From positions 17,826-81,825 of the forward strand of contig JAPLSY010000087.1 of NCBI GenBank assembly GCA_026398415.1: a stretch of DNA of 64,000 bases, in the 5' to 3' direction. Origin of the DNA: Kiritimatiellota bacterium (GTDB lineage Bacteria; Verrucomicrobiota; Kiritimatiellia; JAAZAB01). A program made the translations under genes and the position numbers. Shown here one piece after another: positions 1 to 26,419 of this stretch (position 1 is the stretch's first letter; each line of letters opens with the position of its first letter). Below the pieces are notes generated by a model. The model saw only the letters and a list, made by a program, of their open reading frames with translations, was not told where the DNA came from and did no database searches.

Positions 1-1
1 A

Positions 2-700: not shown

Positions 701-726
701 TTGCCTTAAAAAACAAAGGGGGCGGC

Positions 727-3102: not shown

Positions 3103-3265
3103 AAAACTTTTCCCGGAAGCGACGTGAGGCAGCAGGCGGGAACGAATTCAGCAAATATTGTTTTTTCTTGTTGCATCCGGAGTGGGGCAAACTACTGTCT
3201 ATCCGTAAGTGGCATCAGGAGATGCCTGAGCAGTTGCGAAAATAAAGCAAAATGAAGGAGCGAAC

Positions 3266-5185: not shown

Positions 5186-5198
5186 CGAGGTAAAGTTG

Positions 5199-7142: not shown

Positions 7143-7298
7143 TGGATTTCCTCCGTATCTTACAGGTATGTTAATTGCAAATCCCTGTCGTTTGATTATT
7201 GAATATGCTAAATTTTTATGTTTAATTCAAGTCCTATATTACGAACTCTTGGTGAGCAAAAGGAAATCCTGCCACAAAATCAGGAAGGAATAAGCACA

Positions 7299-9608
7299 AT
7301 GGAAATTAAACCATTGAATCGCGGAGGTGCAAGCGGACCAGGCCTTAACCAAAAACGGAAAGCATTGCGCAGAATATTCACGATTTACCTGGGGACTTTG
7401 GGCGGCCTGGCGCTGCTGATCGGCGGCTGCCAGAATCTGGGAGCTTCCGCCAAGGATAAGGCCGATGCCAAGGCTTTGATGACTTTGCGGGCGGAGCGCC
7501 GGGAAATGGCGCATCGGCCCCGTCGGTTGATCTTAAACAACGACGGGGACGATCAAATTTTTGCCAAGGCACCCACGCGGGAAGCGTTCTTGGAAGTGCG
7601 GACCACGCCCCTGGCCGATTCCCAGGTGGACACCATCATTTACTGCACCTCGCTGCCCTTCGGCCTGTTCGCCCACCGGTCGCAGGAAGGCGAGATCCTG
7701 ACCCTGCGGGAATTCCCCAACGGCAAAGGGGGCATGTACCGGAGCATAGTGGCTGACTTCCTGGAGCAGGGGACCGATCCGTTGCAGGTGATGGTCGAGT
7801 GGTGCCGGGCACATGGCCGGGAAATCTTCTGGACCATGCGGATGAACGACGTCCATGACACCTATTACCCTTACTTACTCCCCAAGTTCAAACGCGAGCA
7901 TCCGCAATACCTGCTGGGCACTTCCAATAAACCTCCATGTCACGGCAACTGGACGGCCGTAGATTACGGCGAGCCGGAAGTCCGCGACCGGCTCGTGGGC
8001 TACCTGCGCGAGATCTGTCGGAACTACAATGTGGACGGCATCGAGATGGATTTCTTCCGGTCCCTGGTGTTTTTTCGCCCAGTCGCCGAGGGGGGCGAAG
8101 CGGGGGATGCCGAACGCGGCATGATGACCGACATGGTTCGCAAGGTGCGCCGGATGACCGAGGAGGAGGGACTGCGCCGGGGCCGCCCCATTCTGGTGTC
8201 GGCCCGTACACCCGATTCGATCGAATTCTGCCGGGCTATTGGACTGGACCTGGAACGCTGGATGCAGGAGGGGTTGCTGGATATCTGGGTGGTCGGCGGC
8301 GACTTTCGCCTGAACCCCTGGCCTGAAAACGTTGCGTTGGGCCACCGGCACGGTTTGACGATCTGGTGCGACCTGGATCCGGTCGTCCACAATGCCGCGG
8401 GTCGCTGGAACCGCAACGCGATCGAGAGCATGCGGGCCCGCGCGCTGGAAGCCTGGAGTGCCGGGGCCGACGGGGTATACTTTTTCAACTTCTACGATCA
8501 ACCGAAGGATCCAATGTGGCGGGAATTGGGCGATCCCCGGACCCTGGCAAAGGCCGACCAGGTGATCTTTGCCAACGTCATGGGTCGCACTGGGTTCATG
8601 TCGGCCGACGGAGCGTTGGCGGAGGGGCATCGGTTCGAGACTGTGAGCATGGTCCACCCGGATAACCCCATGCAATTGCGGTCGCATCAAACGCAGCGTG
8701 TCCTGGTGCCGGTGGGCGCCGATCCGCAGGCCTCCTCCAATGGGGCGGCCGACGTCGAGGCACGTTGTCACCTGTTGCTCAACGGCGTGAATGAGGCCGG
8801 CGAATTGCGGGTGAGCCTCAACGGCAAGGTTCTGGATGGAGGCGTCCTGGTGAAGGATTGGTGGGAGGCCCCTGTGCCGCCGGGCCTGCTGCGCGGTGGC
8901 ACCAACGCTTTTGACATTGTTTATACCCCGCCTTCGGATAAGGGCGTAGGCGCCGGCAAAAATACGAACGAGACTTGGAACGTGGTGTATCGCGGCGATC
9001 ATGTGATGCAGTACCCGCAACAGTTGCCCTGGCGCCGCTTGACCGACTGCAAGCAGTACGTCGAGGAGATTCGCAACGGGGCGCTTTACCTGGCCGACCT
9101 CACCGCGGGCGACGCGCAGATGATCAACCTGGCCTATCCCTGGATGGTCAGCCCGGGCGAACGGATCGTTGTGGAGGCACGGGTGAAAGTTTTGGCGTCG
9201 GACGATCCCACGGCCGTCTGTCTGCGGATGGCCGACGGGGCATCCGTGGAAATCCTGGCGTTGGAGAAGGACGGTGTCAGGTTGCTCCACGCGGGGTTGA
9301 AGCATGGTATGAATACAACGGACGCCTTTCACACGTACCGGGTCGAGATCCTCGGGAAGGATATCCGCGTATACGTGGATGGTGGCGTGGCGCTGGACGG
9401 GGCAGGGCGTTTCACGGCCCCCGTTACGGACAAAGGCAACGAGATGCCGTTGGGGTATGGACTGCGGTATTGGAACCGGTGCAGTTTGCTATGGGGATCG
9501 GCCAGCGGCCCGGGCCGGGGCGAGGCGCTCTGGGAGTTCGTCCGGTTCCGCCAATCGGGCGTGCTGTTGCACGACGTGGTCTTGACCCTGCATCATCGCG
9601 GAAAGTAA
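7299..9608 (+). CDS. glycoside-hydrolase-like TIM-barrel lipoprotein with C-terminal ConA/LamG-like domain
   Basis: ATG at 7299 with CAGGAAGGA 10 nt upstream. Lipoprotein signal ...LALLIGGCQ. The C-terminal ~190 aa (FHTYRVEILGKDIRVYVDGG...ALWEFVRF) are homologous to the N-domains of the two sialidase-like proteins. Confidence 0.6.
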   Translation: MEIKPLNRGGASGPGLNQKRKALRRIFTIYLGTLGGLALLIGGCQNLGASAKDKADAKALMTLRAERREMAHRPRRLILNNDGDDQIFAKAPTREAFLEVRTTPLADSQVDTIIYCTSLPFGLFAHRSQEGEILTLREFPNGKGGMYRSIVADFLEQGTDPLQVMVEWCRAHGREIFWTMRMNDVHDTYYPYLLPKFKREHPQYLLGTSNKPPCHGNWTAVDYGEPEVRDRLVGYLREICRNYNVDGIEMDFFRSLVFFRPVAEGGEAGDAERGMMTDMVRKVRRMTEEEGLRRGRPILVSARTPDSIEFCRAIGLDLERWMQEGLLDIWVVGGDFRLNPWPENVALGHRHGLTIWCDLDPVVHNAAGRWNRNAIESMRARALEAWSAGADGVYFFNFYDQPKDPMWRELGDPRTLAKADQVIFANVMGRTGFMSADGALAEGHRFETVSMVHPDNPMQLRSHQTQRVLVPVGADPQASSNGAADVEARCHLLLNGVNEAGELRVSLNGKVLDGGVLVKDWWEAPVPPGLLRGGTNAFDIVYTPPSDKGVGAGKNTNETWNVVYRGDHVMQYPQQLPWRRLTDCKQYVEEIRNGALYLADLTAGDAQMINLAYPWMVSPGERIVVEARVKVLASDDPTAVCLRMADGASVEILALEKDGVRLLHAGLKHGMNTTDAFHTYRVEILGKDIRVYVDGGVALDGAGRFTAPVTDKGNEMPLGYGLRYWNRCSLLWGSASGPGRGEALWEFVRFRQSGVLLHDVVLTLHHRGK

Positions 9609-9802
9609 TCGTAGATGCTGCAACATGGGGTTTCTGTATGTGTGCGGCATGCACAGGTGTCTTGATAATATCAATTGATTGGATTGGTTCAAGACAACGC
9701 AAAGAATAATTCAAGTCTTTACAATCTATCTGTAAATAACAATAATTTGTCTTCGCCGGGCTAATTTTTACGGCCACGGACTCCGGATAAAACCATGCCA
9801 AA

Positions 9803-11230
9803 GTGCGACGCACGATGAAAACGCAACACCTGCAACGGATGTTGATCGGGTTGGGGCTAATAATGGCCTTGGCGACGCCCCGGGCGTTTGCCACGGACTG
9901 GTATGTGACCACCAACGGCACCGGCGACGGGTCGGCGAGCTGGGCAAATGCCACAACTAACCTGCAGGGCGCGATAAATTCGGCAACCGACAGCGAGACA
10001 GTCTATGTGACCAACAACGCCACCTATTACCTCACGAATCAAATAACCGTCAGCTACGCTATTACGGTGCGGAGTTGGGGGCCGGGCGGAATACTGGACC
10101 CGACCAACACGATCCTGGACGGCAATTATCCCACTACGACCAACCGGCATTTTACGCTTAACAAGTACGGAGCTACGCTGGCTGGTTTTACGCTCACGAA
10201 CGGATGGGGCGAATCCGATGGTAATTCCAATACGGCCAGTGGCGGGTCAATCTATTTATCACGCGGAATAGTGACAAACTGCATTGTCATGTATAACTAT
10301 GCGTTAGGCACGAACAATGGCGGTTGGGGGGGTGGCGGTATATTGTTGATTACCGGCAGCGGGGGTGTGTGGAATTGCACAATTAGCGCTAATTCGTCAA
10401 GACAATTGGGCGGTGGCATCTACGCCAAAAACGGTGGCCCTTGGAAGATTGCAAATTGCATGGTCGCCAATAATGATTCGCGCTCAGAAGGAGCAGGAAT
10501 TAATATGGGAGCATCGGGAACGATTATCAGCAATTGTTGGATTGTCTCCAATTCCACATTTGGGAGCGCTGGCGGAGTTCGTATGAGTGCCGGAATCGCA
10601 GGGCAATGTGTTAATTCCTTTATCATAGGTAATACTGCCCGTGGCTCCTGGTCTCCCGGCGGTGGCATTCGGCCAAACTCGGGCTTGATCAGAAATTGCC
10701 TGATTGCCAGTAATGTGTCGCAATATGGAGCTGGATTAGCTATTGGCAATGCGCCGACGGAAAGTAGTTCAATTCAAAACTGTACGATTGTCGGCAACAT
10801 AGCCACTAATGGCGAGGGAGGCGGATTCGATTTAGCGGATTACAATGGTTTTGCAAAACTCGAAAACACCATCATTTGGGACAATAGCACACTCAAGGCA
10901 GGCACTATTTCCTCTAATTACTACATTAATCGCTCTGATCCGGCACTTGCGTTTGCTACCTTTACTAACTGCTGCACCTCGCCGCTAATTGTCAGCACTT
11001 ATGCTTCCGAGGTCAATACCATTACCAACGATCCGCGATTTGTGAAAACCGCAACCGATAATTACCAGTTGCAACCGGATTCGCCCTGCATCAATGCCGG
11101 CGTGAATCGGGCCTGGATGGAAGGTGCTCTGGATGTTTATGGCCATCGGCGCATTGATAATTTCCGCAGAACCGTTGATATCGGCGCCCATGAATACCTT
11201 GGTAAAGGCACAGTGTTCAGATTCCAGTAA
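9803..11230 (+). CDS. secreted right-handed beta-helix (pectate-lyase-fold) protein
   Basis: GTG start (VRRTMKTQ). The paralog at 61195 has the same GTG frame, with synonymous substitutions in the first codons. Signal peptide, then beta-helix-type repeats (N/S/T/G-rich coils: NCTI, NCIV, NCWIV, NCLIA). The C-terminal ...CINAGVNRAWMEG...DIGAHEY motif is shared with the paralog. Confidence 0.65.
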   Translation: MRRTMKTQHLQRMLIGLGLIMALATPRAFATDWYVTTNGTGDGSASWANATTNLQGAINSATDSETVYVTNNATYYLTNQITVSYAITVRSWGPGGILDPTNTILDGNYPTTTNRHFTLNKYGATLAGFTLTNGWGESDGNSNTASGGSIYLSRGIVTNCIVMYNYALGTNNGGWGGGGILLITGSGGVWNCTISANSSRQLGGGIYAKNGGPWKIANCMVANNDSRSEGAGINMGASGTIISNCWIVSNSTFGSAGGVRMSAGIAGQCVNSFIIGNTARGSWSPGGGIRPNSGLIRNCLIASNVSQYGAGLAIGNAPTESSSIQNCTIVGNIATNGEGGGFDLADYNGFAKLENTIIWDNSTLKAGTISSNYYINRSDPALAFATFTNCCTSPLIVSTYASEVNTITNDPRFVKTATDNYQLQPDSPCINAGVNRAWMEGALDVYGHRRIDNFRRTVDIGAHEYLGKGTVFRFQ

Positions 11231-11351: not shown

Positions 11352-11786
11352 ATGAGCTGGGTCCAGGAGTTCAAGCAGTTCGCCATGCGGGGTAATGTGA
11401 TGGATATGGCGATTGGTATCGTCATCGGCGCCGCGTTCGGCAAAATCGTATCTTCGCTGGTCGCGGATATCATGATGCCGCCTATCGGAAAACTGATGGG
11501 CAACGTGGATTTTTCCAGCCTGTTCATCGTGCTGGGCGCCGGCACTTATCCTTCGCTGGCGGCCGCCAAAGCGGCCGGCGCCGCGACACTTAATTACGGC
11601 CTCTTCATTAATACGGTTATCGATTTCATCATCGTGGCTTTCGCCATCTTTCTGCTTGTGAAAGGCGTGAATACCATGCACCGCAAGGAGGAAACCAAGG
11701 TCGCGCCGCCTATGCCGCCGACGCCTTCAGCGGAAGAAAAACTTCTGGCTGAAATCCGGGATCTGCTGAAACATAAAGCGGTCTGA
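11352..11786 (+). CDS. mscL: large-conductance mechanosensitive channel MscL
   Basis: AAGGAG RBS. Sequence [46 protein letters not shown] is the textbook MscL N-terminus. Length is 144 aa. Confidence 0.9.
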
Positions 11787-11815
11787 CCGCCCCGCGTTAA
11801 AACATAAGGAACGGA

Positions 11816-12460
11816 GTGACCCATTGTCCAAAGTGCGGAGTGCCTGTTGACCAGGGGACCCGATTCTGCCCGGCGTGTGGAACGCCGGCCGGCGGCGCCG
11901 GCACACCTCAGCCGCACCGGTCCGGGCGAGCGCTGAAATTGTGGGCCTTGGCCGGACTGGCGTGTTTTGCCTGCCTCATCATCATGGCAATCAATTTCAA
12001 CCTGTTCCTCCGGCTGGTGGCAATTGGCGGAACAGTCCTGTTTATGCTTTCAATCGCGATGATGTTCCTGACCTTCCGGAAAGCAAAAAAGATAGCCCCT
12101 GCCCCCCTGGTCATTTCAATAATCATGAGCCTGCTTACCCTGTGGGTTTATGCGCTCTTCCTCGGCATCCATTTCAGCGGCACGGTGAAATTCATGGGGC
12201 TCCTTTCCGGCATACTTGTAGGCATCGGGTGGGCGCTGACCACACCCGTCCGGAGCAACAACGGCATAGTTGAAAGGGAAGGAAACGTCTGGTACCTGGT
12301 CGTCTGGGGCCTGGTTTTCGCGATCAACCAGCTTGCCGCTGCCATCACCGGCCGGCCGCCGCACATTGCAATGGTGCTCCTGCTCCTCGGCACGGGGATC
12401 GTGCTCGGCACCAGCGGAACTTTCATCGCAAGGTATTACTCAATGAAGGCCAGGCATTGA
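11816..12460 (+). CDS. zinc-ribbon domain membrane protein (N-terminal CPKCG...RFCPACG ribbon + ~4 TM helices)
   Basis: GTG start with AAGGAACGGAG upstream. It lies 30 bp after mscL. A CxxCG-x8-RFCxxCG zinc ribbon is followed by hydrophobic helices. Its stop (TGA 12458-12460) is 1 nt from the next gene's ATG. Confidence 0.6.
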   Translation: MTHCPKCGVPVDQGTRFCPACGTPAGGAGTPQPHRSGRALKLWALAGLACFACLIIMAINFNLFLRLVAIGGTVLFMLSIAMMFLTFRKAKKIAPAPLVISIIMSLLTLWVYALFLGIHFSGTVKFMGLLSGILVGIGWALTTPVRSNNGIVEREGNVWYLVVWGLVFAINQLAAAITGRPPHIAMVLLLLGTGIVLGTSGTFIARYYSMKARH

Positions 12461-12461
12461 C

Positions 12462-15400
12462 ATGAAAAACAGGAAATCCGGACTGCGTTCCATGTGCGGA
12501 CGATTGCTGGCGGTAATATTTCTGGCATCGTTTGCCGCATTGCCGTCCAGCGCCGAATCTTTCCTGGTGCGCTGCGGAATAGTCGGTGAACACGGTGGTT
12601 ACTGGGTCAACTACGACGGAAATCCCAAGGGGAACGGCATCAAGTTCGGGGGGGACGACAAGCTTAATTATTACTCGACAACCTGTTTTGTGAAACCAGG
12701 CGAGACCGCACGGGTGCTTATAAACCCGTATGCCGAGAGCAAGCCGATAGCAGGGCGATTCGGAGCAGGTTCCTGCGATATTGTCTTTACGGTCAATAAC
12801 GCCGTGTACGAGGGCAAGCAAGATGATAAACGGCGGGGAGACGGGTGGAAATTGCCTGTCAAGCCCGGCTGGAACAAGGCCGTGATCAAGGTCGATGCCT
12901 ATGCATATAATAACGGCAATGTGCAGCACATCGGCTCAATGAGCCAGGAAGTATCCTTCTTTGTGTTCGTCATACAGGTCGAGCGGGCAGGGCAATTAAG
13001 GTCACCGTTTTCGGGTTATCCTGAAGTCAATTCGGGATACATGATGCCGTCGCATGATGGGACGGTCTATGCCTGCCTGACCTGCTTTACGAGGCCGCGC
13101 GGCGGCGGAAGCAAGTACGCCCTGGTGCACATGGAGCAGAGCGGCCGCATAATTAAGATTTACGCGATACATCCCGATGTTTCTTCCAGCCCGGTGGCAT
13201 ATGATTCGGAAGGCGGGCTGTATGTGAATGTCATGGAAAGGATAGTCAGGTTCAATCCGGACGGGTCTTTTGACAGGTCCATTGTTTCTTTTAATGAGAA
13301 CTATGAAGAAGAAATAACCGGCCGGCATCTGGAGGAAAAGGTTTATCCGACAACAGTTAATGGCAAGAAAACGCTGACGCCTGCATACCCGGACCTGCAT
13401 CCATCTGCGTCATGCAGCGAAATGGCAGTAAACGGCAAATATGTTTACCTGGTGGCAGCGCAAAGAAAGAATTCCAGTAATTACGATGATGTTCTTTGCC
13501 GGCTTGACCTTGAGTCCGGTAAAGTTGATGTTCTTTCGCAGGTAAATGTGCTGGACGGCCCTGTTCCTGGTCCCAACGGCCTGGTGTACATGCGCTCGAA
13601 ACCCGTCAACAAAGGAAAGTCGCCGCGTGGCACGACGATGTGTGATGTCCTTGGTTTTGATGCCAACGGGCGGCCGTCGAGCAGTTTCACAATAGCCAAT
13701 GCGGGATACGATCTTGACGGATTTGATGGAGCCGGCTGCTTATACAATAGCTGTGTTGTCTCGCAGGATGGACTCAGGGAGTCGACATATATACCGGAAG
13801 GACGCCTGAGGCATGTCCGTCTATCCTCGCCTACAAGATATATCGATCTTGTGGGAGGACAGGAAGTCAAGGATAACACGCTTCAAGCACAGGGCGGTCA
13901 CTGGATGGATGGCGGGTCTTATTATTGCTTATACCGAGAGGATGGTAATATTGCCAGGTTTACTTCATTGTTCCCGGGAACCGGCAGTGTGCCACAACCG
14001 CAGCCGGCAGTCGTCAAGCTTGGCAAGAAGGGATTCTTTTCCGGAAAGGATACAGGCGCAAAGGAATCACCTGCCGAGAAAAAGCCGGCAGTCAAATCTG
14101 ATCCTGGAAACAATGCGCCGGCGGATGAGGAAAATGCCGTGGAGCAGATTCCGTCTTCCATAGGCAACGAGTGGACTCCCGCCCAAACAGATAACACATC
14201 AAATGAAGGCGGGGCAAATGCTGATAATACGGCAGGTAATGCTGCCGGAGCGGCCGCGGCAGGCGCAGGCGTGGTCGGAGCGCTGGGCGCGTTCGGGGCA
14301 TACCTGATGATGAAGGCCAACAACATGGGCCTCAAGGATGTGATCGATGGCGTGAAGGACCTGTTTGAAACCGCGAGTGCGCCGGAGCCCGAAACGCCGC
14401 GGATCCTGTTCCAGGAGCCGCCGCATAAAGATGGCGAGGTTAACGACCGGGACGAGGTGTGGAGCGACGAGGATCGCGGCTGGGTGGGCAGGAATCTGTA
14501 CGAGCAGGAAAAAGAGCGAAGAAAGAACATTGACCTGGTCAACGAAGAAGCCCTGCGCACTTCGGACAAGTCGGTAAAGGAAGCCTTTGACCAGTGGCAG
14601 GAATCGAAGAAGAAACTGGAAGACATGCGAGCGTACCAGCTGAAGGAACACAAGATTGAAGCGATGAGGCTGGAACTCGATCGCAGGCAAAGAGAATCGG
14701 ACCGCGGTGCGAGCTGGACGGAAACCATAAGCGACAACCTGGAGAGGGACTGGAAGGAATTGAAGGAAGACTGCGGGAAACTCTACGATGCGGCCACCGA
14801 CGCCAACACCTACAGCAAGATCTACGAAGGAAGCAAAGGGCTGCGAGGCAAGATCGCCGAATACGCCTGGGAAGCGGGCTCGCATCCCTGGGATACCACC
14901 ATCAAGGTGTTTTCAGCCACAGGCAAGGTGCTCGGAGAGACGGCGGCCGCCGTGTATGAAAAGCCGGAACTGATGTTCATAGCCGCAGGCAAACTGATTG
15001 AGGCTGGAATCGTTGATCCGATACTTGCCGTGACCGACAAGAACAAGCGCTTGTCGGACAGATTGCTGGCCGTGGCCAAACTTGAAGTTGATTATGCCCT
15101 CATGCCGTGGGCAACAACGAAAGTGCTGGGCTTGGCCGGTTCGATCGGAAGCAGGGTGATTGAGACGGTTGGACAGACCGGCGGCAGGATAATGAAGGTG
15201 GCTGGCAAGGCTGGTGAAAACCTTGTGGAAGGCCTGCGTGGTCTCGGGCTTGGCGAAAAAGTTGCCGAAGAAGGCGCAGAACAGATAGCAGGCAAGGGAT
15301 TGAACCCGGCACTGAGTGCCACGGAAAAACGGCTGGCGTTCCTGGAGTCGAGCGATACCCTGGCCAGGAAGGCAAAAATGATGGAGAACCTGAACCAGGT

Positions 15401-16271
15401 GGCCGACGCGCCGGAAGGCATGCGCATGTTCATGTTGAACGAGGTGCGCAAGGAAGATCCTGCTATTTTCAACCTTGTCCGGAAGGAGTTACACCCTGAG
15501 ACGGCCGCGAAAATCGGCCAAACCCTCGAGGGGTTCAACCAGGAAGCATTGAGCAAGACATCGCAGGCGTTGACCAGTAACGGTTACGTGGTTAAAGAAG
15601 TTAAACTGGCCGGAAACGTCCGCGGCGCCGACTGTGATTCCTACTGGAAGGTAGTGAAAGACGGACGCGTACTGTCCGAGGCCGAGACGCGCAAGGTGGT
15701 GGACAGCGCTAGAAAGGGCGTGTTCCAGGATGAATTCGGCCACCTCCGTTCAACGCCGGATGAACTGGGGCACAAGACCATGAACGCCAGTCCCGAGAAG
15801 TTCGCGGCCGAACCAGGTGACCTTGGCATCCAGGAAGTGACTATAAAACCCAAGCCCGACGGGACACTTGACTTTGACCAGGCCGTGAAGGCCGGACCGG
15901 ATCCGGCCAGGACAAGGGGCGTCGCACAGGCCGAACTTATGTCCGACAAAGTGGCAACTCCGGAAGTGGTGCACTCTGTCGGAGAAGTTCTGAAGACAAA
16001 AACGGATCACTTGAAAGGACTCGGGAGGCCGGCGACCACCACAGAGTTGCGTGACATGGCCAGGGAAATAACTAAAACCGGCACTCGAACGGTGGACGCC
16101 CTGACGGAAAAGACCGGGGCATCAATGACCCCGGACTACCAGGCTCTGCGGAGGCAGCTGGCGCTGGTGGCGGCCGGGGATGCGAAGGGCGGGATACTGC
16201 CAACGCTGGATAAGATAGACGCGATTCTTGCGGGACAAATAAAAGTGCTTCAAAATGCAGTTGCCAGGTAA
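12462..16271 (+). CDS. giant bitopic hypothetical protein (1269 aa): signal peptide, ~560-aa extracytoplasmic domain, single TM (~aa 600-625), ~640-aa charged coiled-coil C-terminal domain
   Basis: Uninterrupted ORF, translationally coupled to the upstream zinc-ribbon gene. N-terminus MKNRKSGLRSMCGRLLAVIFLASFAALPSSAES is signal-like. Gly/Ala-rich hydrophobic segment AGAAAAGAGVVGALGAFGAYLMM. The C-terminal half is charged and coiled-coil (EQEKERRKNIDLVNEEALR...). No known family recognised. Confidence 0.65.
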   Translation: MKNRKSGLRSMCGRLLAVIFLASFAALPSSAESFLVRCGIVGEHGGYWVNYDGNPKGNGIKFGGDDKLNYYSTTCFVKPGETARVLINPYAESKPIAGRFGAGSCDIVFTVNNAVYEGKQDDKRRGDGWKLPVKPGWNKAVIKVDAYAYNNGNVQHIGSMSQEVSFFVFVIQVERAGQLRSPFSGYPEVNSGYMMPSHDGTVYACLTCFTRPRGGGSKYALVHMEQSGRIIKIYAIHPDVSSSPVAYDSEGGLYVNVMERIVRFNPDGSFDRSIVSFNENYEEEITGRHLEEKVYPTTVNGKKTLTPAYPDLHPSASCSEMAVNGKYVYLVAAQRKNSSNYDDVLCRLDLESGKVDVLSQVNVLDGPVPGPNGLVYMRSKPVNKGKSPRGTTMCDVLGFDANGRPSSSFTIANAGYDLDGFDGAGCLYNSCVVSQDGLRESTYIPEGRLRHVRLSSPTRYIDLVGGQEVKDNTLQAQGGHWMDGGSYYCLYREDGNIARFTSLFPGTGSVPQPQPAVVKLGKKGFFSGKDTGAKESPAEKKPAVKSDPGNNAPADEENAVEQIPSSIGNEWTPAQTDNTSNEGGANADNTAGNAAGAAAAGAGVVGALGAFGAYLMMKANNMGLKDVIDGVKDLFETASAPEPETPRILFQEPPHKDGEVNDRDEVWSDEDRGWVGRNLYEQEKERRKNIDLVNEEALRTSDKSVKEAFDQWQESKKKLEDMRAYQLKEHKIEAMRLELDRRQRESDRGASWTETISDNLERDWKELKEDCGKLYDAATDANTYSKIYEGSKGLRGKIAEYAWEAGSHPWDTTIKVFSATGKVLGETAAAVYEKPELMFIAAGKLIEAGIVDPILAVTDKNKRLSDRLLAVAKLEVDYALMPWATTKVLGLAGSIGSRVIETVGQTGGRIMKVAGKAGENLVEGLRGLGLGEKVAEEGAEQIAGKGLNPALSATEKRLAFLESSDTLARKAKMMENLNQVADAPEGMRMFMLNEVRKEDPAIFNLVRKELHPETAAKIGQTLEGFNQEALSKTSQALTSNGYVVKEVKLAGNVRGADCDSYWKVVKDGRVLSEAETRKVVDSARKGVFQDEFGHLRSTPDELGHKTMNASPEKFAAEPGDLGIQEVTIKPKPDGTLDFDQAVKAGPDPARTRGVAQAELMSDKVATPEVVHSVGEVLKTKTDHLKGLGRPATTTELRDMAREITKTGTRTVDALTEKTGASMTPDYQALRRQLALVAAGDAKGGILPTLDKIDAILAGQIKVLQNAVAR

Positions 16272-16325
16272 CATGGTCGGCAGGTGGAAGGAAACAATCC
16301 AGCAGACTGCCGGGGAGGATGAGCG

Positions 16326-17417
16326 ATGTTTAGAATTGGCATGACAATATCAGGGTTTCTTGGAAGTTGCGAGAAGGCCGGGCTCAAACCGTCGGCGTTA
16401 TCTCCGGCAAAATTACTCCTGGATCAGTTCGGAAAGGGAATGGAACCCGATCGGAGCGATTTCGCCTTACCCGTGCCGGCTGAGGAGTTTGCGAAGACCA
16501 TGCAAACACTGCTCCAGCCGGATCATGTCATTGCCGCGAGATATGGCGGGCATATGGCTGATCCGCAGGAAGTGCGCTTTGCTTTCGCAAGGATCGAAAC
16601 CGCCGCACATATTGCGGCGATCTCGCCACTGGCGCCTGCCAGGGTATTCATTGAGTCTTTTGACGGCACGGACGGATGGATGGAATGGATCCTGGACCGT
16701 GTGGATCCTCTTAGACTGGCCGCAAGTAGAGGTCAGGCCGCAACGGGTAAACTGACCTGGGTTCAACTCCTGTATTTTCTCCATTCCGTCGACATGTACA
16801 GGAGATGCTACTACCGGTCGATGCTGGATCAGGCGCCGGTGGACGAGTTTGAGTTCTCGGAGACGGAATATCTTGAGGATCTACAGAATTCTGTTTTGTC
16901 GGCGGACTGGCGCTGGCTTGTGCCTTGCCTGATGAGCATGGTTCCCAGGGCCGTGCCTGATTCGGTTCTTGGACTGAAAAACCAGTTCGACTGTTTGAAA
17001 GAATACGGGGTGATAACCGGATCCAAATCGGGGCTCATGAAATTCACCGACCACGGGCAGAATCTCGGGCTGGAATTCATGCTTCAATGGGTGTCCGCGC
17101 TCGGGCTGGAGATATGCAGGGGAGACGGGAAGCAGGCGGAGGAAAGCAGGCTTTTCGTATTGGGCACGAACAAGGGGGCGCACCTGTTTGAATTTGAGAA
17201 GAATGAAATCAGCTACACGGTCGCAGGCGGGCAAGGAGTAAAGGAGTGCCTGAATAGACTTCTGAACAGGTTGGGCCCGCTGCCCAAAGCCGCGGCCGTG
17301 AAGCAATCCACACCGCCGCCCCTTGAATCTGTGCCCGACAGACAATTCTGTTCGCAGTGCGGAAAGCCGCTCGCGCTAAAGGGCCGCTTCTGCCCGGCCT
17401 GCGGTGCCGCGGCCTGA
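16326..17417 (+). CDS. hypothetical cytoplasmic protein with C-terminal zinc ribbon (CSQCGKPLALKGRFCPACG)
   Basis: GGGGAGGA RBS 6 nt upstream. 54 bp after the giant gene. The C-terminal CxxCG-x7-RFCxxCG motif matches the ribbons of neighbouring proteins. Confidence 0.55.
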   Translation: MFRIGMTISGFLGSCEKAGLKPSALSPAKLLLDQFGKGMEPDRSDFALPVPAEEFAKTMQTLLQPDHVIAARYGGHMADPQEVRFAFARIETAAHIAAISPLAPARVFIESFDGTDGWMEWILDRVDPLRLAASRGQAATGKLTWVQLLYFLHSVDMYRRCYYRSMLDQAPVDEFEFSETEYLEDLQNSVLSADWRWLVPCLMSMVPRAVPDSVLGLKNQFDCLKEYGVITGSKSGLMKFTDHGQNLGLEFMLQWVSALGLEICRGDGKQAEESRLFVLGTNKGAHLFEFEKNEISYTVAGGQGVKECLNRLLNRLGPLPKAAAVKQSTPPPLESVPDRQFCSQCGKPLALKGRFCPACGAAA

Positions 17418-18587
17418 TTATTCGGTCGATTTCTCTGTCGCGGTGAACCGAAAAGTGCCGATCAGGTGGACCATCACAAAATAGTATTTCTTGAACAGCT
17501 TCTTCGGCGCGGTATAGCTGATCATGTAATAATACGGCTCACGGTCGATTATCGCCTGCATCTGCTGGAATGCCTGTCCACTTGGCATCTCAAAACGGGC
17601 GACCATGTAAAAAGCCTTTTTCCCGCTCAAGTCGCCCTGGTCGGTCTTGTCCAGCTCGAACTCATCCATGGTTTTCCATTGCGACAGTATTTTATCGGCT
17701 TCGCTTCTGACCGTGCTGCCGGGTTTCTTGTTGATGATCTGGAAATTAACCGTAGTGTCATATTCTTCGGTGCCCTTGGCCCCGCAAAAGATATGCGCGT
17801 TGTCCTTGACCTCCGATTCCCAGTGCGCCGGAAGCTCGGCAACAAACCCGAACTTCTTATTCACGTACTTATCGTACTTGAGCCCCGCGGGGCCGGCAGC
17901 GGCCTCTTCGCCCGATTTAGGATTCCAATCCTTCAGGGGCGACCCTGCCGGATAATCCTGCTTATCCATTCCGGAATTATTATTTGCGGTTCCTGACCCC
18001 ACCCCGGCGGAAACGTCCTTCCCGGGTAGCTTGAGGTCAGGCAGTTCCGCCCCCGGCTTGGGACTAACCGGGATATCTGTGTTCACCAAACCATTAATAT
18101 CCCGCTTCTTGCCGTCGCCGGATGACCCGATGATGGCAAGGATAATGATTATGCCGAGGACACCTAACGCAACCAGCACAAGCGGCAGGCATCCCTTCTT
18201 CCGCGCAGGCTTCCCCGCTGAAATCGCATCCTTCACCGGCGCCCCGCATCCAGCACAGAATTTGGCGCCCGGCTTGATTTCCGCTCCGCAGGCGGAACAC
18301 TTGTTTACGGACGGCTGCCCGCAGGGCGCCCCACAGCTGCCACAGAACCTGGCGCCAGGCTTAAGCGCGGCTCCGCATTTCGAGCAGGCAAGGGCATGGC
18401 CGGAGGTATGCCCCGTTACCGCCGCCACGGCATTCTTGATGTCCTGTTTGGTTACAAGCTCCTTGTCCGCATTGTAAACGCCATCCATCAGGAATTCCGC
18501 AGGCATGTCCTTCGCACTCGTGTAAGTCCCCGTCTTGGTGCCAAACCTGAGGATTCCGAGTTTTCTAAGAATATCGATAAAACTCAT
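17418..18587 (-). CDS. double-zinc-ribbon membrane protein with C-terminal extracytoplasmic (PsbP/DcrB-like?) domain
   Basis: The N-terminal cytoplasmic part carries two tandem ribbons (CSKCGAALKPGARFCGSCGAP; CSACGAEIKPGAKFCAGCGAP). One TM follows (LPLVLVALGVLGIIIILAIIG), then a ~220-aa C-terminal domain. Its stop abuts the stop of the convergent gene at 17417 with zero spacer. Confidence 0.6.
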   Translation of the reverse strand: MSFIDILRKLGILRFGTKTGTYTSAKDMPAEFLMDGVYNADKELVTKQDIKNAVAAVTGHTSGHALACSKCGAALKPGARFCGSCGAPCGQPSVNKCSACGAEIKPGAKFCAGCGAPVKDAISAGKPARKKGCLPLVLVALGVLGIIIILAIIGSSGDGKKRDINGLVNTDIPVSPKPGAELPDLKLPGKDVSAGVGSGTANNNSGMDKQDYPAGSPLKDWNPKSGEEAAAGPAGLKYDKYVNKKFGFVAELPAHWESEVKDNAHIFCGAKGTEEYDTTVNFQIINKKPGSTVRSEADKILSQWKTMDEFELDKTDQGDLSGKKAFYMVARFEMPSGQAFQQMQAIIDREPYYYMISYTAPKKLFKKYYFVMVHLIGTFRFTATEKSTE

Positions 18588-20611
18588 ACCTGCTCCTTTG
18601 CCTGCAATGCGATTAAATCAGGACAATTGGCGCAGCATCATCGCCAAACGACGATGCCACGTTCTTAATTTCTGCATGCGGTTTGCTGCGCCAGAAGCTT
18701 CTTCAACCCCGCCAGGCATTTCTCGGCGGAGCCTGGCCGGTTTTGAAATAATTACACTTCACACACTAAGCCGACAGCACTCTCTTTAATAGCCTCCTCT
18801 TTTCTTATCGTTTGTCAAGATGGCAATGGATTTTCAACCGGCGGAACTTGGCAAACTGACGAACGAGATAATATCCCGGTTGACCCTTTGCCGGGACGGG
18901 TATAGCATTAAACTTTAAAGGAATAATGCCGGCTAAGTTCGTACTGCGTTGTTTCTAAACTGGTGTCATTGTTCGGAAAACAAAGCGACGTAATATTAGT
19001 GCTTTGTTACCAGAGGAGGGCGTTATGCGGCCGCGGATGCTGCCAATCATTGTGGGCGCCGCCGGGTGGCGGGCGCTTGCCGCACCGGGACTATCCCTCC
19101 TGCTCACCGTGCCCCTTTTGGCCCAGACCATGAACCCGCGGTATTATAACCCCGGCACGCCTACGCTCACGGATATCTGGGTCGACCCACTTAACGGAAA
19201 CGACGGCCATTCCGGTGCGAACCGCAGTCAGGCCTTGCGCAGTCTGGAAGCCGCGTGGAACAGTATCCCCAACGACGCCACACTCACAACGACAGGCTAT
19301 CGCATCCAGTTGGTCGCAGGCATCTACACAGCCGACTTGATTCCGAATTACATGGAACGGCATTACGGCACGTATGCCTGCCCGGTAATCATTCAAGCTG
19401 TCGATGGCCAGGGCACGGCCACGCTGTTGCATGACCTGAATATCTTCGACTGCCACTATCTGTACCTTGTTGATTTTAACATTACCGCGGGGGCCAACAA
19501 CCTGATCCACGGCGAGGCCTGCACCAATCTACTGATGCACGGCCTGACCCTGCAGGGCGATACCAATGCAACGCAGGAAACCATCAAGATGAATCAGTGC
19601 CAGTATATTTACCTGGAAGACAGCGATGTCTCCGGCGCCTTTTGGATGGCCGTGGACTTCTTCGCCGTCCAACATGGCCACATTGTGGGCAACCGCCTGC
19701 ACAATGCCGACTGGGTCGCTTATCTCAAGGGCGGCTCGGCCTATTTCCGAATTGAAGCCAACGAGATCTATGACGGCGGCACAATCGGGTTCACGGCCGG
19801 CCAGGGCTCCGGTTTCGAATTTATGGCATCTCCGTGGCTACACTATGAAGCATCGGACATTAAATTCATTAATAACGTCGTCCACGACATCGACGGCGCC
19901 GGCATGGGTGTTAACGGCGGCTACAACATCCTCCTGGCGCATAACACCCTCTTCCGTGTCGGCCGTCGTTCACATGCGATAGAAGTCGTCTTCGGTGAAC
20001 GCAGTTGCGATGGCAACACAGGGCGCTGCGCCGAACTACTGGCCGCCGGCGGTTGGGGCACGGTGAACGCTGGCGTCTCTGAGCCGATCCCCAATTGCCA
20101 TGTCTATATCTACAACAACATCCTTTATAACCCCGCCGGCTACCGGAGCGCAGACAGCCACTTGGCGGTCTATGCCCCGCGTACTCCCTCCATCGGCTCA
20201 AACATCCCTTCCCCGGCGGAGACGGATACCGACCTGCGCTTTCGCGGTAACATCTTCTGGAACGGGCCGCCGGATCTTGCCCTGGGCATCGGTGACAGCG
20301 ACCAAGGCGGCCAGCCATCAAACCCCACCTGCAACCCAGCGCAATTCCTCGCGGATAACACCGTCAACAGCCTTGAACCACAACTCATAAATCCGACCGG
20401 CGCAGACTTCCGGCCGCTCATCGGCGGCAACGTATTTTCAACGGCGACGTATGCCATTCCGGATTTCACGGGAACAGATCGCCCGGCCCCGCCGGCGGAG
20501 CCGCAAGGCAATCTGCTCAACACCGTTGAGCGCGATTATTACGGCTATCCCCGTTTATCCTCCAGCCCGCCGGGCGCCTTTGCCCAAGCCAATACAAACA
20601 CAACGCCCAAT

Positions 20612-21305
20612 GACTACGATGGCGACGGCAAGTCTGACCTGGCCGTGTACCGTAACGGCAATTGGGCCATCCAAACGATGGCGGGTAACGTTATCGCTTA
20701 CGGCTGGGGCGAGCCGGGCTGGATACCAGTGTCAGGGGATTATGACGGCGATGGCAAGTCCGACCTGGCCGTGTACCGTGACGGCAATTGGGCCATCCAA
20801 ACGATGACGGGTAGCGTTATCGCTGACAGCTGGGGCGAGCCGGGCTGGATACCAGTGTCAGGGGATTATGATGGCGACGGCAAGTCCGACCTGGCCGTGT
20901 ACCGTGACGGCAATTGGGCCATCTGTACGATGGTGGGTAGCATTATCGCTCGTGACTGGGGCGAGCCGGGCTGGATACCAGTGCCAGGGGATTATGATGG
21001 TGGGTAGCATTATCGCTCGTGACTGGGGCGAGCCGGGCTGGATACCAGTGCCAGGGGATTATGATGGCGACGGCAAGTCCGACCTGGCCGTGTACCGTGA
21101 CGGCAATTGGGCCATTCACACGATGGCGGGTAGCATTATCGCTGGCGGCTGGGGCGAGCCGGGCTGGACTCCCGTGTCAGGGGATTATGATGGCGACGGC
21201 AAGTTTGACCTGGCCGTGTACCGTGACGGCAATTGGGCCATCCAAACGATGGCGGGTAACATGATCGCTGACAGCTGGGGCGAGCCGGGCTGGACTCCCG
21301 TGCCG
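20612..21305 (+). repeat. tandem ~120-bp (40-aa) FG-GAP-like coding repeats, ~5.7 units, ~90% nt identity
   Basis: Repeated gattatgatggcgacggcaagtccgacctggccgtgtaccgtgacggcaattgggccatc... units are directly visible. Confidence 0.85.
20934..21067 (+). repeat. perfect 67-bp direct tandem duplication (2 x tgggtagcattatcgctcgtgactggggcgagccgggctggataccagtgccaggggattatgatgg)
   Basis: Exact character-by-character match of 20934-21000 and 21001-21067. 67 is not a multiple of 3, so the duplication causes a +1 frameshift and an immediate TAG. Confidence 0.9.
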
Positions 21306-21799
21306 TAACGCCTGAGTATGCGTGTCATTCTGGAAGCTAATATGCGCCGGTAAGTACAATGTTTGGCGGACAAGATTCTAGGTAAGGTCTCCAGTGATTT
21401 TCACCACGCCGGTTTAATTGTCGCTTGAACTACAGAATTATCTCCCCACGCCTGTCTGATCTGGCTGGCAACACCCTCCACAAAATATTTAAGAATGCCT
21501 AAATAACTCCAAAACGTTCCAAAGGCATTCCTATCACCCAAATTCGCCAAAAGGTTCAAAATTAAAGTCGGTTTGGTCGCCAACGCTGATAAAAATATTG
21601 GCCATCCAAGCCGTTCCGACATGTTTTATGCATGATTATTCTCGTCAAGCCATCGATAATCCAGTATTGACTTGAAGGTTCCCTTAAGCTTGGAAAACTA
21701 TGGCTTCAGAATACTAAAGCTTAAAAATTGATCGCAAAATGGCGCAGCCATCGCAAAACTTATTGCTAAATGGTCGCCCGCCTGAAAACAGAGGAAAGA

Positions 21800-22051
21800 T
21801 CAAAAATGCTTTTGAGCAAAGGCACGGCCGGAATGAGATTTGAGGTAGTTCTCAAAGTCAAGCGCCTGTTGCCTATCGGAGAATGCAATATATGTTTTGA
21901 TTTGCCAAGGGCGGAATTTGGCCGTGTGTGGACATTCTCCATCGTTGTGCTGACGAATGCGGTCAGTCACATTTTCCGTAAAACCGGTATAGTGCTTTCC
22001 GGGATGGGAAAGGCTTCCAAGCATATAAACGCAATAGAAGCGCGTTTCCAT
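21800..22051 (-). CDS. GIY-YIG nuclease superfamily small protein
   Basis: FYCVYMLGS...HYTGFTENVTDRIRQHNDG...RPWQIKTYIAFSDRQQALDFENYLK matches the GIY-YIG (URI) motifs, as in the YhbQ/UPF0213 family. Such genes are typically found beside tRNA genes. Confidence 0.7.
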   Translation of the reverse strand: METRFYCVYMLGSLSHPGKHYTGFTENVTDRIRQHNDGECPHTAKFRPWQIKTYIAFSDRQQALDFENYLKSHSGRAFAQKHF

Positions 22052-22243
22052 GATTGGCGTTTAGTCTGACTCGGCTTCGTTACCAATATGACTTAGCCAA
22101 AACTGGCGTCCGGCTTCGTCTGGAGACCACGCCGTGACTGGCGTGCCAAGGCGTAGCTCGCAGACGGTTTATGAGTAAATAGCCCGGCTTCGTTAAGAAC
22201 TTCGCCGTGGCAGGCTTCGCTCTTGTTGACACTGCGAGCGAAG

Positions 22244-22316
22244 CCTGGAGCGGAGGAGATTCGAACTCCCGACCCCCACGTTGCGAACGTGGTGCTCTAC
22301 CAACTGAGCTACCGCC
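22244..22316 (-). tRNA. tRNA-Ala (anticodon CGC)
   Basis: The reverse complement folds as a cloverleaf. Acceptor stem GGGGCGG/CCGCTCC has the G3:U70 Ala identity pair and an A73 discriminator. D-loop AGTTGGTA. Anticodon loop TTCGCAA. T-loop TTCGAAT. CCA is not encoded. Confidence 0.85.
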
Positions 22317-22463
22317 CCATTTTGAAGAAGACACCAGAGGTCAGACGCCAGCCTGCCTACCATAGCGCTCGGGCAACGGCAGACGACAAGAGATCAGACA
22401 TCGAAAGTCGAGGTCAGGGAAAACCTCAACCATCGCAAGCCGAACAAGTTCACGCCAACAACT

Positions 22464-22598
22464 TTACGGCGCTGGTGATGGCGCCAGGCTGGATTGCTTG
22501 GCCATCTGCTTCATTTTTTTCTTCTGTTGTTTTTCCTGGATCGAAAGTTTCGGCTTGTTGTTACGACCGGTATTGCCTTTATCCATGCTTTTTCCCAT
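22464..22598 (-). CDS. small lysine-rich hypothetical protein (44 aa, MGKSMDKGNTGRNNKPKLSIQEKQQKKKMKQMAKQSSLAPSPAP)
   Basis: A perfect TAAGGAGG RBS sits 6 nt upstream of the ATG, between the tRNA and the DMT gene. No family recognised. Confidence 0.45.
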   Translation of the reverse strand: MGKSMDKGNTGRNNKPKLSIQEKQQKKKMKQMAKQSSLAPSPAP

Positions 22599-22683
22599 GA
22601 CGCGCCTCCTTATTTCAAGAATCTCCAAGGAACTTGCTTTTCTGACCGGCAATTATCCTCGCCGGGGTTCGTCTGTCAAAACA

Positions 22684-23610
22684 TTATTTTTGTTCGCTCG
22701 CTCCCGCATTAGGACCGCGGGAGGCGAAGAGATGACCGCTCACGGTAATCATCAAGCCGCCCAAAATGAGCGCACTGCCCAGTAGCATGAATCGGTTGAT
22801 GTGCTCGCCTAACACCAGGACGGCCAGCACAGAGGCCATCACAGGCTTGAGAAAAAACATCATTGAGGCCTGGAAAGCCGTGCCATGGCCAAGCCCGTAA
22901 TAATAGAGCCCGTAAGCCAGTGCGGTGCCCAGGAGCGCCACATACAGGGTCGGCGCCCAGGCGTTCGCCAAGCCGGCCAAGCCTTGGTGAGCCGTTACCA
23001 CCAACGCGAACGGCAGCACCATCAGACTGCCGAACAGCGCGGAAAAACCCGTGAGCACAAATACGCCATAGCGGATAATTACACGCCGGACGATACAGAC
23101 ACTGAGCGCAAACAACATGGCCGCCATCAGCATGAGACTGAGCGCCGCCAGGGATTGGCGCGTGAAGGCGCCCGATTCCCAGGCGAAACAGGCCACCCCC
23201 ACGATGCCGGTCACCATGGCCGCCCATTTCGGCACGCTCCAGGATTCGCGGTTGACAAACCGCGCAAAGAGCAGGACAAAAATCGGGTTGGCACTGAACA
23301 CCACGGCGCAGGAAGCCGCCTTTTCAAATACCAGGATTGCGGCATGGAACAGCACGAGCGCGAGCGCAAACCCAATGCCCCCATTGAGCGCAAACACGCC
23401 ATAATCGCGCGAACCCAGGGGTACCGACCGCTTGCGCAGAGCCGGCGCCGCCAGGGCCAGCAGGATGATCCCGGTCAGGAAAAAGCGGATGAAGACCATT
23501 TGCAGGGGATGAACCCGCGCCCCGACAAGCTTGCTGGCCACCTCAACCGTGCTGAACAAGCCTACACCGGCAAATAGCGCCAGAAACCCAATGACTTTTT
23601 CATGACGCAT
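22684..23610 (-). CDS. DMT-superfamily (EamA-like) transporter
   Basis: ~10 hydrophobic helices in an EamA-type duplicated pattern. Start chosen at the internal ATG (MRHEKVIGFLALFAG), because the longer ORF adds non-hydrophobic residues. Confidence 0.65.
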   Translation of the reverse strand: MRHEKVIGFLALFAGVGLFSTVEVASKLVGARVHPLQMVFIRFFLTGIILLALAAPALRKRSVPLGSRDYGVFALNGGIGFALALVLFHAAILVFEKAASCAVVFSANPIFVLLFARFVNRESWSVPKWAAMVTGIVGVACFAWESGAFTRQSLAALSLMLMAAMLFALSVCIVRRVIIRYGVFVLTGFSALFGSLMVLPFALVVTAHQGLAGLANAWAPTLYVALLGTALAYGLYYYGLGHGTAFQASMMFFLKPVMASVLAVLVLGEHINRFMLLGSALILGGLMITVSGHLFASRGPNAGASEQK

Positions 23611-23768
23611 AGCAGGAACCCGATTGGGAGGGAAGGCCGGATGACAGACGACAGACAACGGACGACAGACCTTCCTTCGTCCAAGCGCTCCGGAGGGCAA
23701 GCGACAGATTTATCCCGCATTGTGCGCGGGAGGGCGGACGGCCGAAGACACGACAGAAAAGAGACCTA

Positions 23769-25175: not shown

Positions 25176-25223
25176 GGAAAAAACTCCTGTTTTTTTCTAT
25201 TCTTTAAGATTACACTTACGCAC

Positions 25224-26324: not shown

Positions 26325-26419
26325 GGAACCCCCGTGCGCGTCCCGTGTGGGAATCCGCTTGCTTCCTGACCCTGATATTCTCATAATGCCATTTTGCTTG
26401 GCAAAATTTAAAGGCACCA

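Follow-up and report, generated by a model that had tools for sequence, protein, structure and literature searches.

In bitopic receptor enzymes such as the PASTA/PknB-type Ser/Thr kinases and the receptor-type nucleotide cyclases, a variable sensor is joined through a single transmembrane (TM) helix and a helical or coiled-coil transducer to a cytoplasmic catalytic domain. In the Zorya (ZorAB) and Kiwi (KwaAB) systems, which are patchily distributed, a multi-TM protein is paired with a partner whose long cytoplasmic helical region leads to effector functions. Here we describe a cassette of four genes, which we call A, B, C and D, in a stretch of 64,000 nucleotides (nt) from a Kiritimatiellota bacterium (assembly GCA_026398415.1, contig JAPLSY010000087.1, positions 17,826-81,825 of the forward strand). 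This whole stretch is the window, and positions given without a locus name refer to it. B is a very large protein that crosses the membrane once, A is a small multi-TM protein encoded directly upstream, and A, C and D carry zinc ribbons. We found that the cassette is previously undescribed and horizontally scattered, and the best overall explanation, to which we give a probability of about 0.5, is that it encodes a new trans-membrane sensing-and-response complex built on A and B.

The initial annotation had placed the four genes next to mscL, with a 1-nt junction between A and B and abutting stop codons between C and D, and this layout was borne out by a map of open reading frames (ORFs) and by inspection of the junctions. 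One base lies between the stop codon of A (TGA, 12458-12460) and the ATG of B at 12462, and B is translationally coupled to A. The spacer between B and C is 54 nt long and holds a GGAGG-type ribosome-binding site (RBS), and the stop codon of C (last base 17417) touches the stop codon of the convergent gene D (17418-17420) with no spacer at all. Hydropathy gives A ~6 TM segments in place of the ~4 helices first assigned to it and finds no TM segment in C, in agreement with a cytoplasmic protein that ends in a ribbon. D has the architecture claimed for it, with two ribbons that score above the Pfam cut-off, one TM helix by hydropathy and a periplasmic domain. B had been described as a single-pass protein with large domains on both sides of the membrane, and we predict the same topology from its signal peptide, a single TM helix at about residues (aa) 590-619 that is followed by Lys/Arg residues, and the cytoplasmic ribbons. 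Outside the ribbons, searches of cassette proteins A to D against Pfam, NCBIfam, PADLOC, PHROGs and PDB sequences gave nothing significant, in line with the earlier remark that none of the large domains resembles a family that could be named.

When 1.84 billion cluster representatives were scanned exhaustively with HMMER, only 52 relatives of B came up. A word-indexed search of 5.8 billion proteins with B returned a single relative (P0001), and word-indexed searches with full-length B, with a 44-member family alignment and with a C-terminal alignment returned only P0001, P0002 and P0054. Low-complexity words dominated these searches, and the B family was uncovered only by the exhaustive scan. 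Pattern-based locus scans with B across genome and metagenome collections gave no match, and no relative of B was found on viral contigs or plasmids in the phage and plasmid collections. The genomic context of eleven relatives of B, together with a scan of the genome collection seeded with a three-member alignment of A, yielded ~19 further loci.

In all 14 loci that have a B of the single-TM type and visible flanks (the window, L007, L009, L010, L011, L012, L013, L014, L015, L016, L017, L020/21, L023/24 and L026), A adjoins B, either directly upstream or at most two genes off, and the two genes are mostly translationally coupled. The A homologs are 30-65% identical and their 6-TM body is conserved (L007, L009-L017, L020/21, L023/24); the ribbon of A is optional, and only in the window, L010 and L013 does A have it. 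The hosts of these loci are an Akkermansiaceae metagenome-assembled genome (MAG), which has the nearest A homolog (65% identity), an Aminicenantes MAG, three Desulfobacterota MAGs (one of them Desulfatitalea) and unassigned metagenomes. The cassette keeps its gene order across at least three bacterial phyla (Verrucomicrobiota, Aminicenantes and Desulfobacterota), and its genomic neighbourhood differs from locus to locus. On a Beijerinckiaceae contig (L018), an A-like gene is followed by a ribbon protein, and the contig stops before the position where a B could show. A 100% identical B is present on 17 short metagenomic contigs from different samples, with the same layout, mscL included where the contig reaches far enough. 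The contig that encodes P0001 (L007) has the order A'-B'-C' and then a convergent ribbon protein, with no mscL. When the B proteins of the window and L007 are compared, the N-terminal 690 aa are 52% identical, whereas the C-terminal halves cannot be aligned by BLAST.

A member of the C family lies directly 3' of B in at least eight loci (the window, L007, L008, L014, L020/21, L022, L023/24 and L025), and there are partial candidates in L011 and L012. The full-length C proteins are all mutually homologous (window C against the others, E-values of 1e-8 to 1e-51), and a domain search with the family finds the ribbon only. D has an ortholog in L010 (13179-14345, minus strand) that is 37% identical over its full length and likewise convergent, and a convergent double-ribbon protein resembling D is encoded in L023/L024. 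This last locus, from one NCBI MAG, has the full order of A, B, C and convergent D, so that the gene order proposed by the initial annotation is conserved there for the cassette itself, but mscL, its proposed first member, is missing. The adjacency of A and B, the C family and the recurring D-type proteins bear out the earlier suggestion that these are not random hypothetical genes, and they define a dedicated, co-conserved, multi-component membrane-associated cassette. The invariant core of this cassette is A together with the TM/β-hairpin core of B, not the ribbon proteins; C and D-type proteins are frequent accessories.

The zinc ribbon had been reported four times on three architectures, and we confirmed each of these copies and found that the window holds no other: a six-frame motif scan of all 64 kb gave no further ribbon of the cassette type, and the sole other C-x2-C-x10-C-x2-C match lies in an 88-codon frame and has no CG/FC signature. 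The ribbons belong to the Pfam class Zn_Ribbon_1/DZR (PF13240, PF12773), which are generic families. The ribbon of A scores 32.2 bits (cut-off 25), that of D scores 48 bits, and 39.2 bits for DZR (cut-off 27.3), and that of C scores 20.7 bits, slightly under the cut-off, with 8 of 9 C-family members matching (best E-value 5.9e-12). When we counted ribbon motifs across 16 loci, we found 30 in the 91 kb within 3.5 kb of B as compared to 1 in the 129 kb further out. This is a ~40-fold enrichment, for which the nominal Poisson P of 7e-38 overstates the significance, some of the loci being related, and it contradicts the possibility that generic DZR ribbons scatter with no enrichment at the locus. 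At B loci the ribbons are carried by accessory proteins with different bodies, namely the C family, D-type proteins (ribbon, TM and periplasmic domain), ribbon-DUF4864, ribbon-RDD and ribbon-TPR proteins, and in P0024 and P0043 they are found on B itself.

DUF4864 domains recur at B-family loci (L011 619-1059; L022 8138-9070; L025 4386-5024); in L022 and L025 they are fused to an N-terminal ribbon and one TM helix, and in L011 a ribbon motif lies slightly 5' of the called start of the DUF4864 gene. The first ~50 residues of D (18435-18587; MSFIDILRKLGILRFGTKTGTY..PAEFLMD) are a separately conserved cytoplasmic motif, which recurs at the N-terminus of the D ortholog in L010 and, with 55% identity, after the ribbon of a stand-alone 91-aa protein in L025 (10316-10591).

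The HMMER matches to B split into three separate sets (aa 35-550, aa 630-750 and aa 955-1230), and B is a mosaic, with interchangeable periplasmic (N-terminal) and cytoplasmic (C-terminal) modules on either side of a segment made up of an invariant Gly/Ala-rich TM helix, a conserved β-hairpin and a long helix. Among the N-terminal modules of the family are the β-rich domain found in the window, a lipoprotein-like domain, a PAN domain and multi-TM domains. In the window, the periplasmic domain contains a G-x-[LVY]-Y motif six times, at a spacing of 45-75 aa, and has a weak Pfam match to the DUF5122 β-propeller (E-value 0.05), and from the motifs and this match together we infer that it is probably propeller-like. 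Relatives of the periplasmic domain are also present, with Big_1 and CarboxypepD_reg domains, on proteins P0034, P0039 and P0044; these have no TM/β-hairpin core, and the ecto-module is thus used outside the cassette as well.

Nearly all members of the B family share a Pro/acidic linker, the Gly/Ala-rich TM helix and the core motif that follows it, which is present in ~40 of the 52 relatives. The invariant residues of the core motif are D657, G658, N661, V666, W667, G673, W674 and Y680. In the AlphaFold2 (AF2) model, the motif has predicted local distance difference test (pLDDT) values of 85-91, with strands at EVWS and GWVG, and the cytoplasmic mid-region behind it is modelled as a confident long helix to ~aa 745 and then as low-confidence helices.

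The C-terminal modules of the family are of at least six types, and in five of these the core motif is followed, 356-456 residues further on, by a D-x-D motif. By hhalign, types 3 and 5 prove homologous (probability 98%), and types 1 and 3 are in register around the D-x-D (E-value 0.006). The module of B in the window is of type 1, for which a 12-sequence alignment shows invariant positions at G1041, G1051, G1055, D1057, D1059, N1108, E1112 and F1114, and a second invariant cluster (K1180, R1201, E1202, K1205, T1206 and R1209) on the helical bundle. The AF2 model of this module has a pLDDT of 85.5 and a predicted template modelling score (pTM) of 0.78. It begins with N-terminal helices, continues after a long helix with the G..GADxD β-hairpin, a helix and three strands, and ends in a four-helix bundle with the basic cluster. 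Foldseek searches with the model found nothing significant in the PDB (best E-value 0.022) or in the viral structure library BFVD. Enzymes with the nucleotidyltransferase (NTase) fold make up 12-13 of the top 50 PDB matches (GlnE, DrrA, kanamycin NTase three times, CapRel three times, CdnC twice and OAS2). Type 2 modules have the sequence GSHARKG-x8-SDIDF, which resembles the canonical minimal-NTase signature. The leading reading of the output module, which we put at roughly even odds, is that of an NTase-like D-x-D enzyme with a helical substrate-binding bundle.

One of the proteins returned by the word-indexed searches, P0054 (NCBI, 415 aa), is 72% identical to the C-terminal module of B over 82% of the query and has a precomputed Pfam assignment to PF16363 (GDP-mannose dehydratase-type). 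Its contig is 2 kb long, and the protein probably represents either a fragment or a chimeric gene call.

In the sensing-and-response complex that we favour, B would be a trans-membrane sensor-transducer, with a periplasmic propeller-like domain that detects an envelope or extracellular cue. The signal would run through the TM helix and the coiled coil, probably in complex with A. A would bind the invariant TM/β-hairpin core of B; this is the most plausible site because A is the one constant partner and the TM/β-hairpin is the one constant part of B. Under the control of the signal, the C-terminal module would work as a metal-dependent D-x-D enzyme, most likely an NTase-like one, whose activity would be either the modification of a target or the synthesis of a nucleotide product. 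For the zinc ribbons, which are found on many accessory bodies, occasionally on A, and on B in two relatives, the most plausible role is that of a shared docking module; through them the A/B core would recruit cytoplasmic C and also D, whose domain lies in the periplasm. The output could be either signalling or anti-invader defence. A more specific proposal is that the cassette represents a new class of envelope-spanning sensor-enzyme, in which the A/B core is a chassis, sensor and D-x-D output modules are swapped, and the zinc ribbons are the plug for accessory subunits. Bacteria would then have an architecture for signal transduction or immunity that had so far gone unrecognised. We put this forward tentatively and see its chances as somewhat short of even. 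Full-text literature searches found the cassette described nowhere, which does not prove that no description exists. Within the limited literature and structure libraries searched, only the generic ribbons and MscL belong to known families.

Several observations weigh against this reading. For the enzyme, neither B nor any of the 44 family members has an NTase match in Pfam or NCBIfam, and PDB and Pfam profile searches with types 1 and 2 were negative. The G-to-D spacing of type 1 is only ~5 residues, shorter than in the canonical hG[GS]-x9-13-Dh[DE]h. There is also no invariant acidic residue on the model strands at 189-191, 210-215 and 221-229 of type 1, and the invariant E1112 (PEKF) is found in a loop. 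Among the remaining pairs of C-terminal types, homology was not demonstrable with hhalign. For the architecture, B relatives with multi-TM N-termini (L022 and L025) have no recognisable A, and one clade (L009, L015-L017) has A and B but no ribbon proteins, which means that the ribbons are not essential to the core. The protein P0035 (L026 3605-6288) is an apparent fusion of A, with ribbon and 6 TM helices, to a B-like protein, and this is topologically consistent in that the B signal peptide would become TM7. However, a frameshift on the same contig puts the C-terminal module into an ORF of its own (5845-6288). An indel may therefore have created the fusion artificially, and for this reason we down-weighted P0035 as a Rosetta-stone link between A and B. 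The coordinates of the cassette and its parts are collected in Table 1.

Table 1. Genes of the cassette, the adjacent mscL, and predicted parts of proteins A to D (nucleotide positions are those of the window).
Feature	Residues (aa)	Position (nt)	Strand	Description and basis
mscL		11352-11786	+	144 aa; Pfam MscL 159 bits; NCBIfam equivalog 186.7 bits, above cut-off
Gene A		11816-12460	+	214 aa; N-terminal zinc ribbon and ~6 TM helices
Gene B		12462-16271	+	1269 aa; bitopic mosaic protein
Gene C		16326-17417	+	363 aa; ~340-aa body with no recognisable domain, then C-terminal zinc ribbon
Gene D		17418-18587	-	389 aa; convergent to C; N-terminal ~50-aa motif, two ribbons, one TM helix, periplasmic domain
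Ribbon in A	4-21	11825-11878	+	pattern C-x2-CG-x7-8-[RK]FC-x2-CG
Ribbon in C		17349-17402	+	pattern C-x2-CG-x7-8-[RK]FC-x2-CG
Ribbons in D		18333-18386 and 18246-18299	-	pattern C-x2-CG-x7-8-[RK]FC-x2-CG
B signal peptide	1-31	12462-12554	+	predicted from hydropathy and ...ALPSSA/ES site
B periplasmic domain	32-505	12555-13976	+	β-rich; 52% identical to P0001, 31-34% to P0003/4/6/7/8/10
B linker	506-589	13977-14228	+	low-complexity, G/A/P/K/N-rich; composition analysis
B TM helix	590-619	14229-14318	+	Gly/Ala-rich; hydropathy; AF2 helix with pLDDT 65-74; aligned in all members
B core motif	650-690	14409-14531	+	H-x-DGEVN-x2-[GD]EVWS-x-E-x-GW-x-x-R-x-x-Y; β-hairpin into long helix
B cytoplasmic mid-region	691-954	14532-15323	+	coiled coil/helical; weak Rad50 coiled-coil match (NCBIfam)
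B C-terminal type 1 module	955-1269	15324-16268	+	small α/β domain and four-helix bundle
G-x3-G-A-D-x-D β-hairpin of B	D1057, D1059	15624-15638	+	invariant; in the α/β domain
D TM helix	136-154	18126-18182	-	hydropathy
D periplasmic domain	155-389		-	weak DcrB-like match, E-value 0.004

One specialised form of the sensing-and-response complex would be a system for anti-phage or abortive-infection defence. In such a system B would sense phage at the envelope, the D-x-D modules would be effectors or second-messenger synthases, A would act in the membrane as an effector or partner, and regulation would fall to the ribbon proteins. The patchy occurrence across unrelated phyla, the extreme rarity (52 clusters in 1.84 billion), a different neighbourhood each time, the Fic, MazE/Fic and Y1 transposase genes that adjoin some loci, and the shuffling of both N- and C-terminal modules of B, a typical trait of conflict systems, all point in this direction. 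However, A, B, C and D have zero matches in PADLOC-DB 2.0 at E-values up to 1, and the flanks of the window, L014 and L015, a handful of loci, have metabolic and envelope genes and no defence islands, the sole PADLOC matches there being the metallo-β-lactamase domain of ComEC. Relatives are absent from viral contigs and plasmids, and the B that is identical on 17 contigs from different samples shows no sign of strain-level diversification. We consider a dedicated defence role unlikely, at about one chance in five.

Somewhat less probable again is a structural or housekeeping envelope complex, for instance a scaffold or a tether between periplasm and cytoplasm, with no enzymatic output; the cytoplasmic half of B would then be a helical scaffold, and the D-x-D would be structural or metal-binding only. 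A cytoplasmic half of B that is mostly helical or coiled coil and the envelope- and glycan-related neighbours in the window (glycoside-hydrolase-like, amidase_3 and FG-GAP) speak for such a scaffold. A housekeeping role predicts widespread vertical inheritance, whereas the cassette is rare and patchy, and the wholesale swapping of C-terminal modules would be unusual. The invariance of G, D and D on the β-hairpin in 12 type 1 modules and the retention of the D-x-D in five types fit catalysis better.

The pattern of a conserved N-terminus and divergent C-terminal halves, seen when the window and L007 are compared (52% identity over 690 aa, then no alignment), is that expected of a polymorphic toxin/immunity system, with a conserved N-terminal delivery part, variable C-terminal toxins and C as the immunity protein; the downstream gene at first seemed unrelated save for its ribbon, and the at least six C-terminal types agree with variable toxin domains. 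We rejected this idea, which we now see as quite improbable, because the C proteins that accompany C-terminal types 1, 2 and 3 all belong to a single homologous family, whereas immunity proteins would be unrelated to one another, and because the predicted topology places the variable C-terminus in the producer's own cytoplasm. The N-terminal modules vary as well; Pfam finds no Rhs, LXG, PT-TG or other trafficking domain in 44 members, the neighbourhoods have no secretion-system genes, and no orphan toxin/immunity cassettes were seen downstream.

The initial annotation had also suggested that the complex could be tied to membrane tension through mscL. In favour of this, only 29 nt separate mscL from A in the window and on the contigs with an identical B, and this gap holds an RBS and no predicted terminator. 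Searches by tblastn with MscL found nothing in 19 related loci, including every locus with flanks of 6-10 kb, and mscL accompanies the cassette only where the B protein is identical. With mscL in 0 of 19 related loci, we dropped the functional link as very improbable; mscL is a chance local neighbour outside the conserved cassette, although it may be co-transcribed with it here. The chance juxtaposition of unrelated hypothetical genes that share a ribbon, itself a generic Zn_Ribbon_1/DZR module of many unrelated proteins, is refuted by a synteny that holds across phyla, by the ~40-fold ribbon enrichment near B and by the translational coupling of A and B, and its probability is negligible.

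The genes around the cassette in the window (1-11230 and 19004-27571) are of glycan and envelope type (GHL10-like, DUF4838/GH67N, BNR, β-helix, FG-GAP, amidase_3, DegT aminotransferase and EamA) and fit a polysaccharide degrader of the Planctomycetes-Verrucomicrobia-Chlamydiae (PVC) type. Taken with the 65% identity between A and its Akkermansiaceae homolog, the glycan-degrading neighbours suggest a verrucomicrobial source for the window. A tRNA-Ala(CGC) is located at 22245-22319, and no hallmarks of mobile elements were seen around the cassette. The β-helix/FG-GAP protein 3' of the cassette (19004-21308) ends in tandem 126-nt (42-aa) 'GDYDGDGKSDLAVYRDGNWAI' repeats. Within this array, especially at 20929-21067, a perfect 67-nt duplication (2.1 copies, 100% identity) shifts the frame, and the array runs on in the ORF at 20868-21308; the duplication is either a recent slippage event, giving a pseudogene or resembling phase variation, or an assembly artefact.

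At other loci, Fic-domain proteins are encoded near two cassettes, directly 5' of A in L007 (5955-7007) and as a MazE/Fic pair ~5 kb 3' in L010 (19019-19650), and a Y1 transposase is found upstream of the cassette in L023 (4208-5221). Such neighbours, which hint at mobility or a part in conflict, are confined to a minority of loci. A gene for a glycerophosphodiester phosphodiesterase (GDPD) lies at most ~2.5 kb from the cassette in two unrelated genomes (L010 16741-17532; L015 7825-8802), which could be a coincidence or a link to lipid headgroups.

If the sensing-and-response complex is real, a self-contained four-part membrane machine has been overlooked by current annotation resources, in which A, the three regions of B and the body of C have no family match. 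Its design would be unusual, as the sensor and output ends are both interchangeable around a fixed TM core with a dedicated partner, and it would offer a tractable new model of how information crosses the bacterial inner membrane. Docking would be a testable role for the abundant and functionally obscure DZR ribbons of membrane proteins. A biochemical test could begin at once, given that the C-terminal module has a confident AF2 model and an invariant D-x-D.

When compared with known systems, the C-terminal module of B is most like the two-domain NTases of the Pol-β superfamily (KNTase/ANT(4'), GlnE and DrrA/SidM; CD-NTases/OAS), although the resemblance is weak; its predicted structure has the same two-domain logic, with a Gly-rich loop and a D-x-D hairpin in an α/β domain and then a helical bundle with conserved basic residues. 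It differs from them in having no significant structural or sequence match (best E-value 0.02), a shorter G-to-D spacing and no third carboxylate that we could find, and also in being part of a giant bitopic membrane protein, which is true of none of these enzymes. In MNT-HEPN toxin-antitoxin pairs a separate small toxin or antitoxin gene is present, whereas in B the parts are fused in one membrane protein, and the bundle has no R-x4-6-H HEPN motif. The architecture of TcaA-type proteins, with an N-terminal zinc ribbon, one TM helix and an extracytoplasmic domain, is common to D, a 618-aa protein of L012 and the ribbon-DUF4864 proteins. The weak match to TcaA itself (NCBIfam NF053815) extends over no more than the ribbon of A (E-value 0.43, 9.3 bits against a cut-off of 550), and the extracytoplasmic domains are unrelated. 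The likeness to Zorya and Kiwi is by analogy, as the cassette has no PADLOC match and no MotAB-like or DUF4868 domains and is not found in defence islands. The overall logic of B is that of the bitopic receptor enzymes; however, B has no kinase or cyclase homology, its output is swapped as freely as its sensor, and what stays constant in the cassette is the TM/β-hairpin core, together with a 6-TM partner dedicated to it. Taken together, the closest functional analogies are to the bitopic receptor enzymes and to membrane-anchored defence systems with long cytoplasmic coiled coils, and the closest structural lead is to the two-domain NTases.

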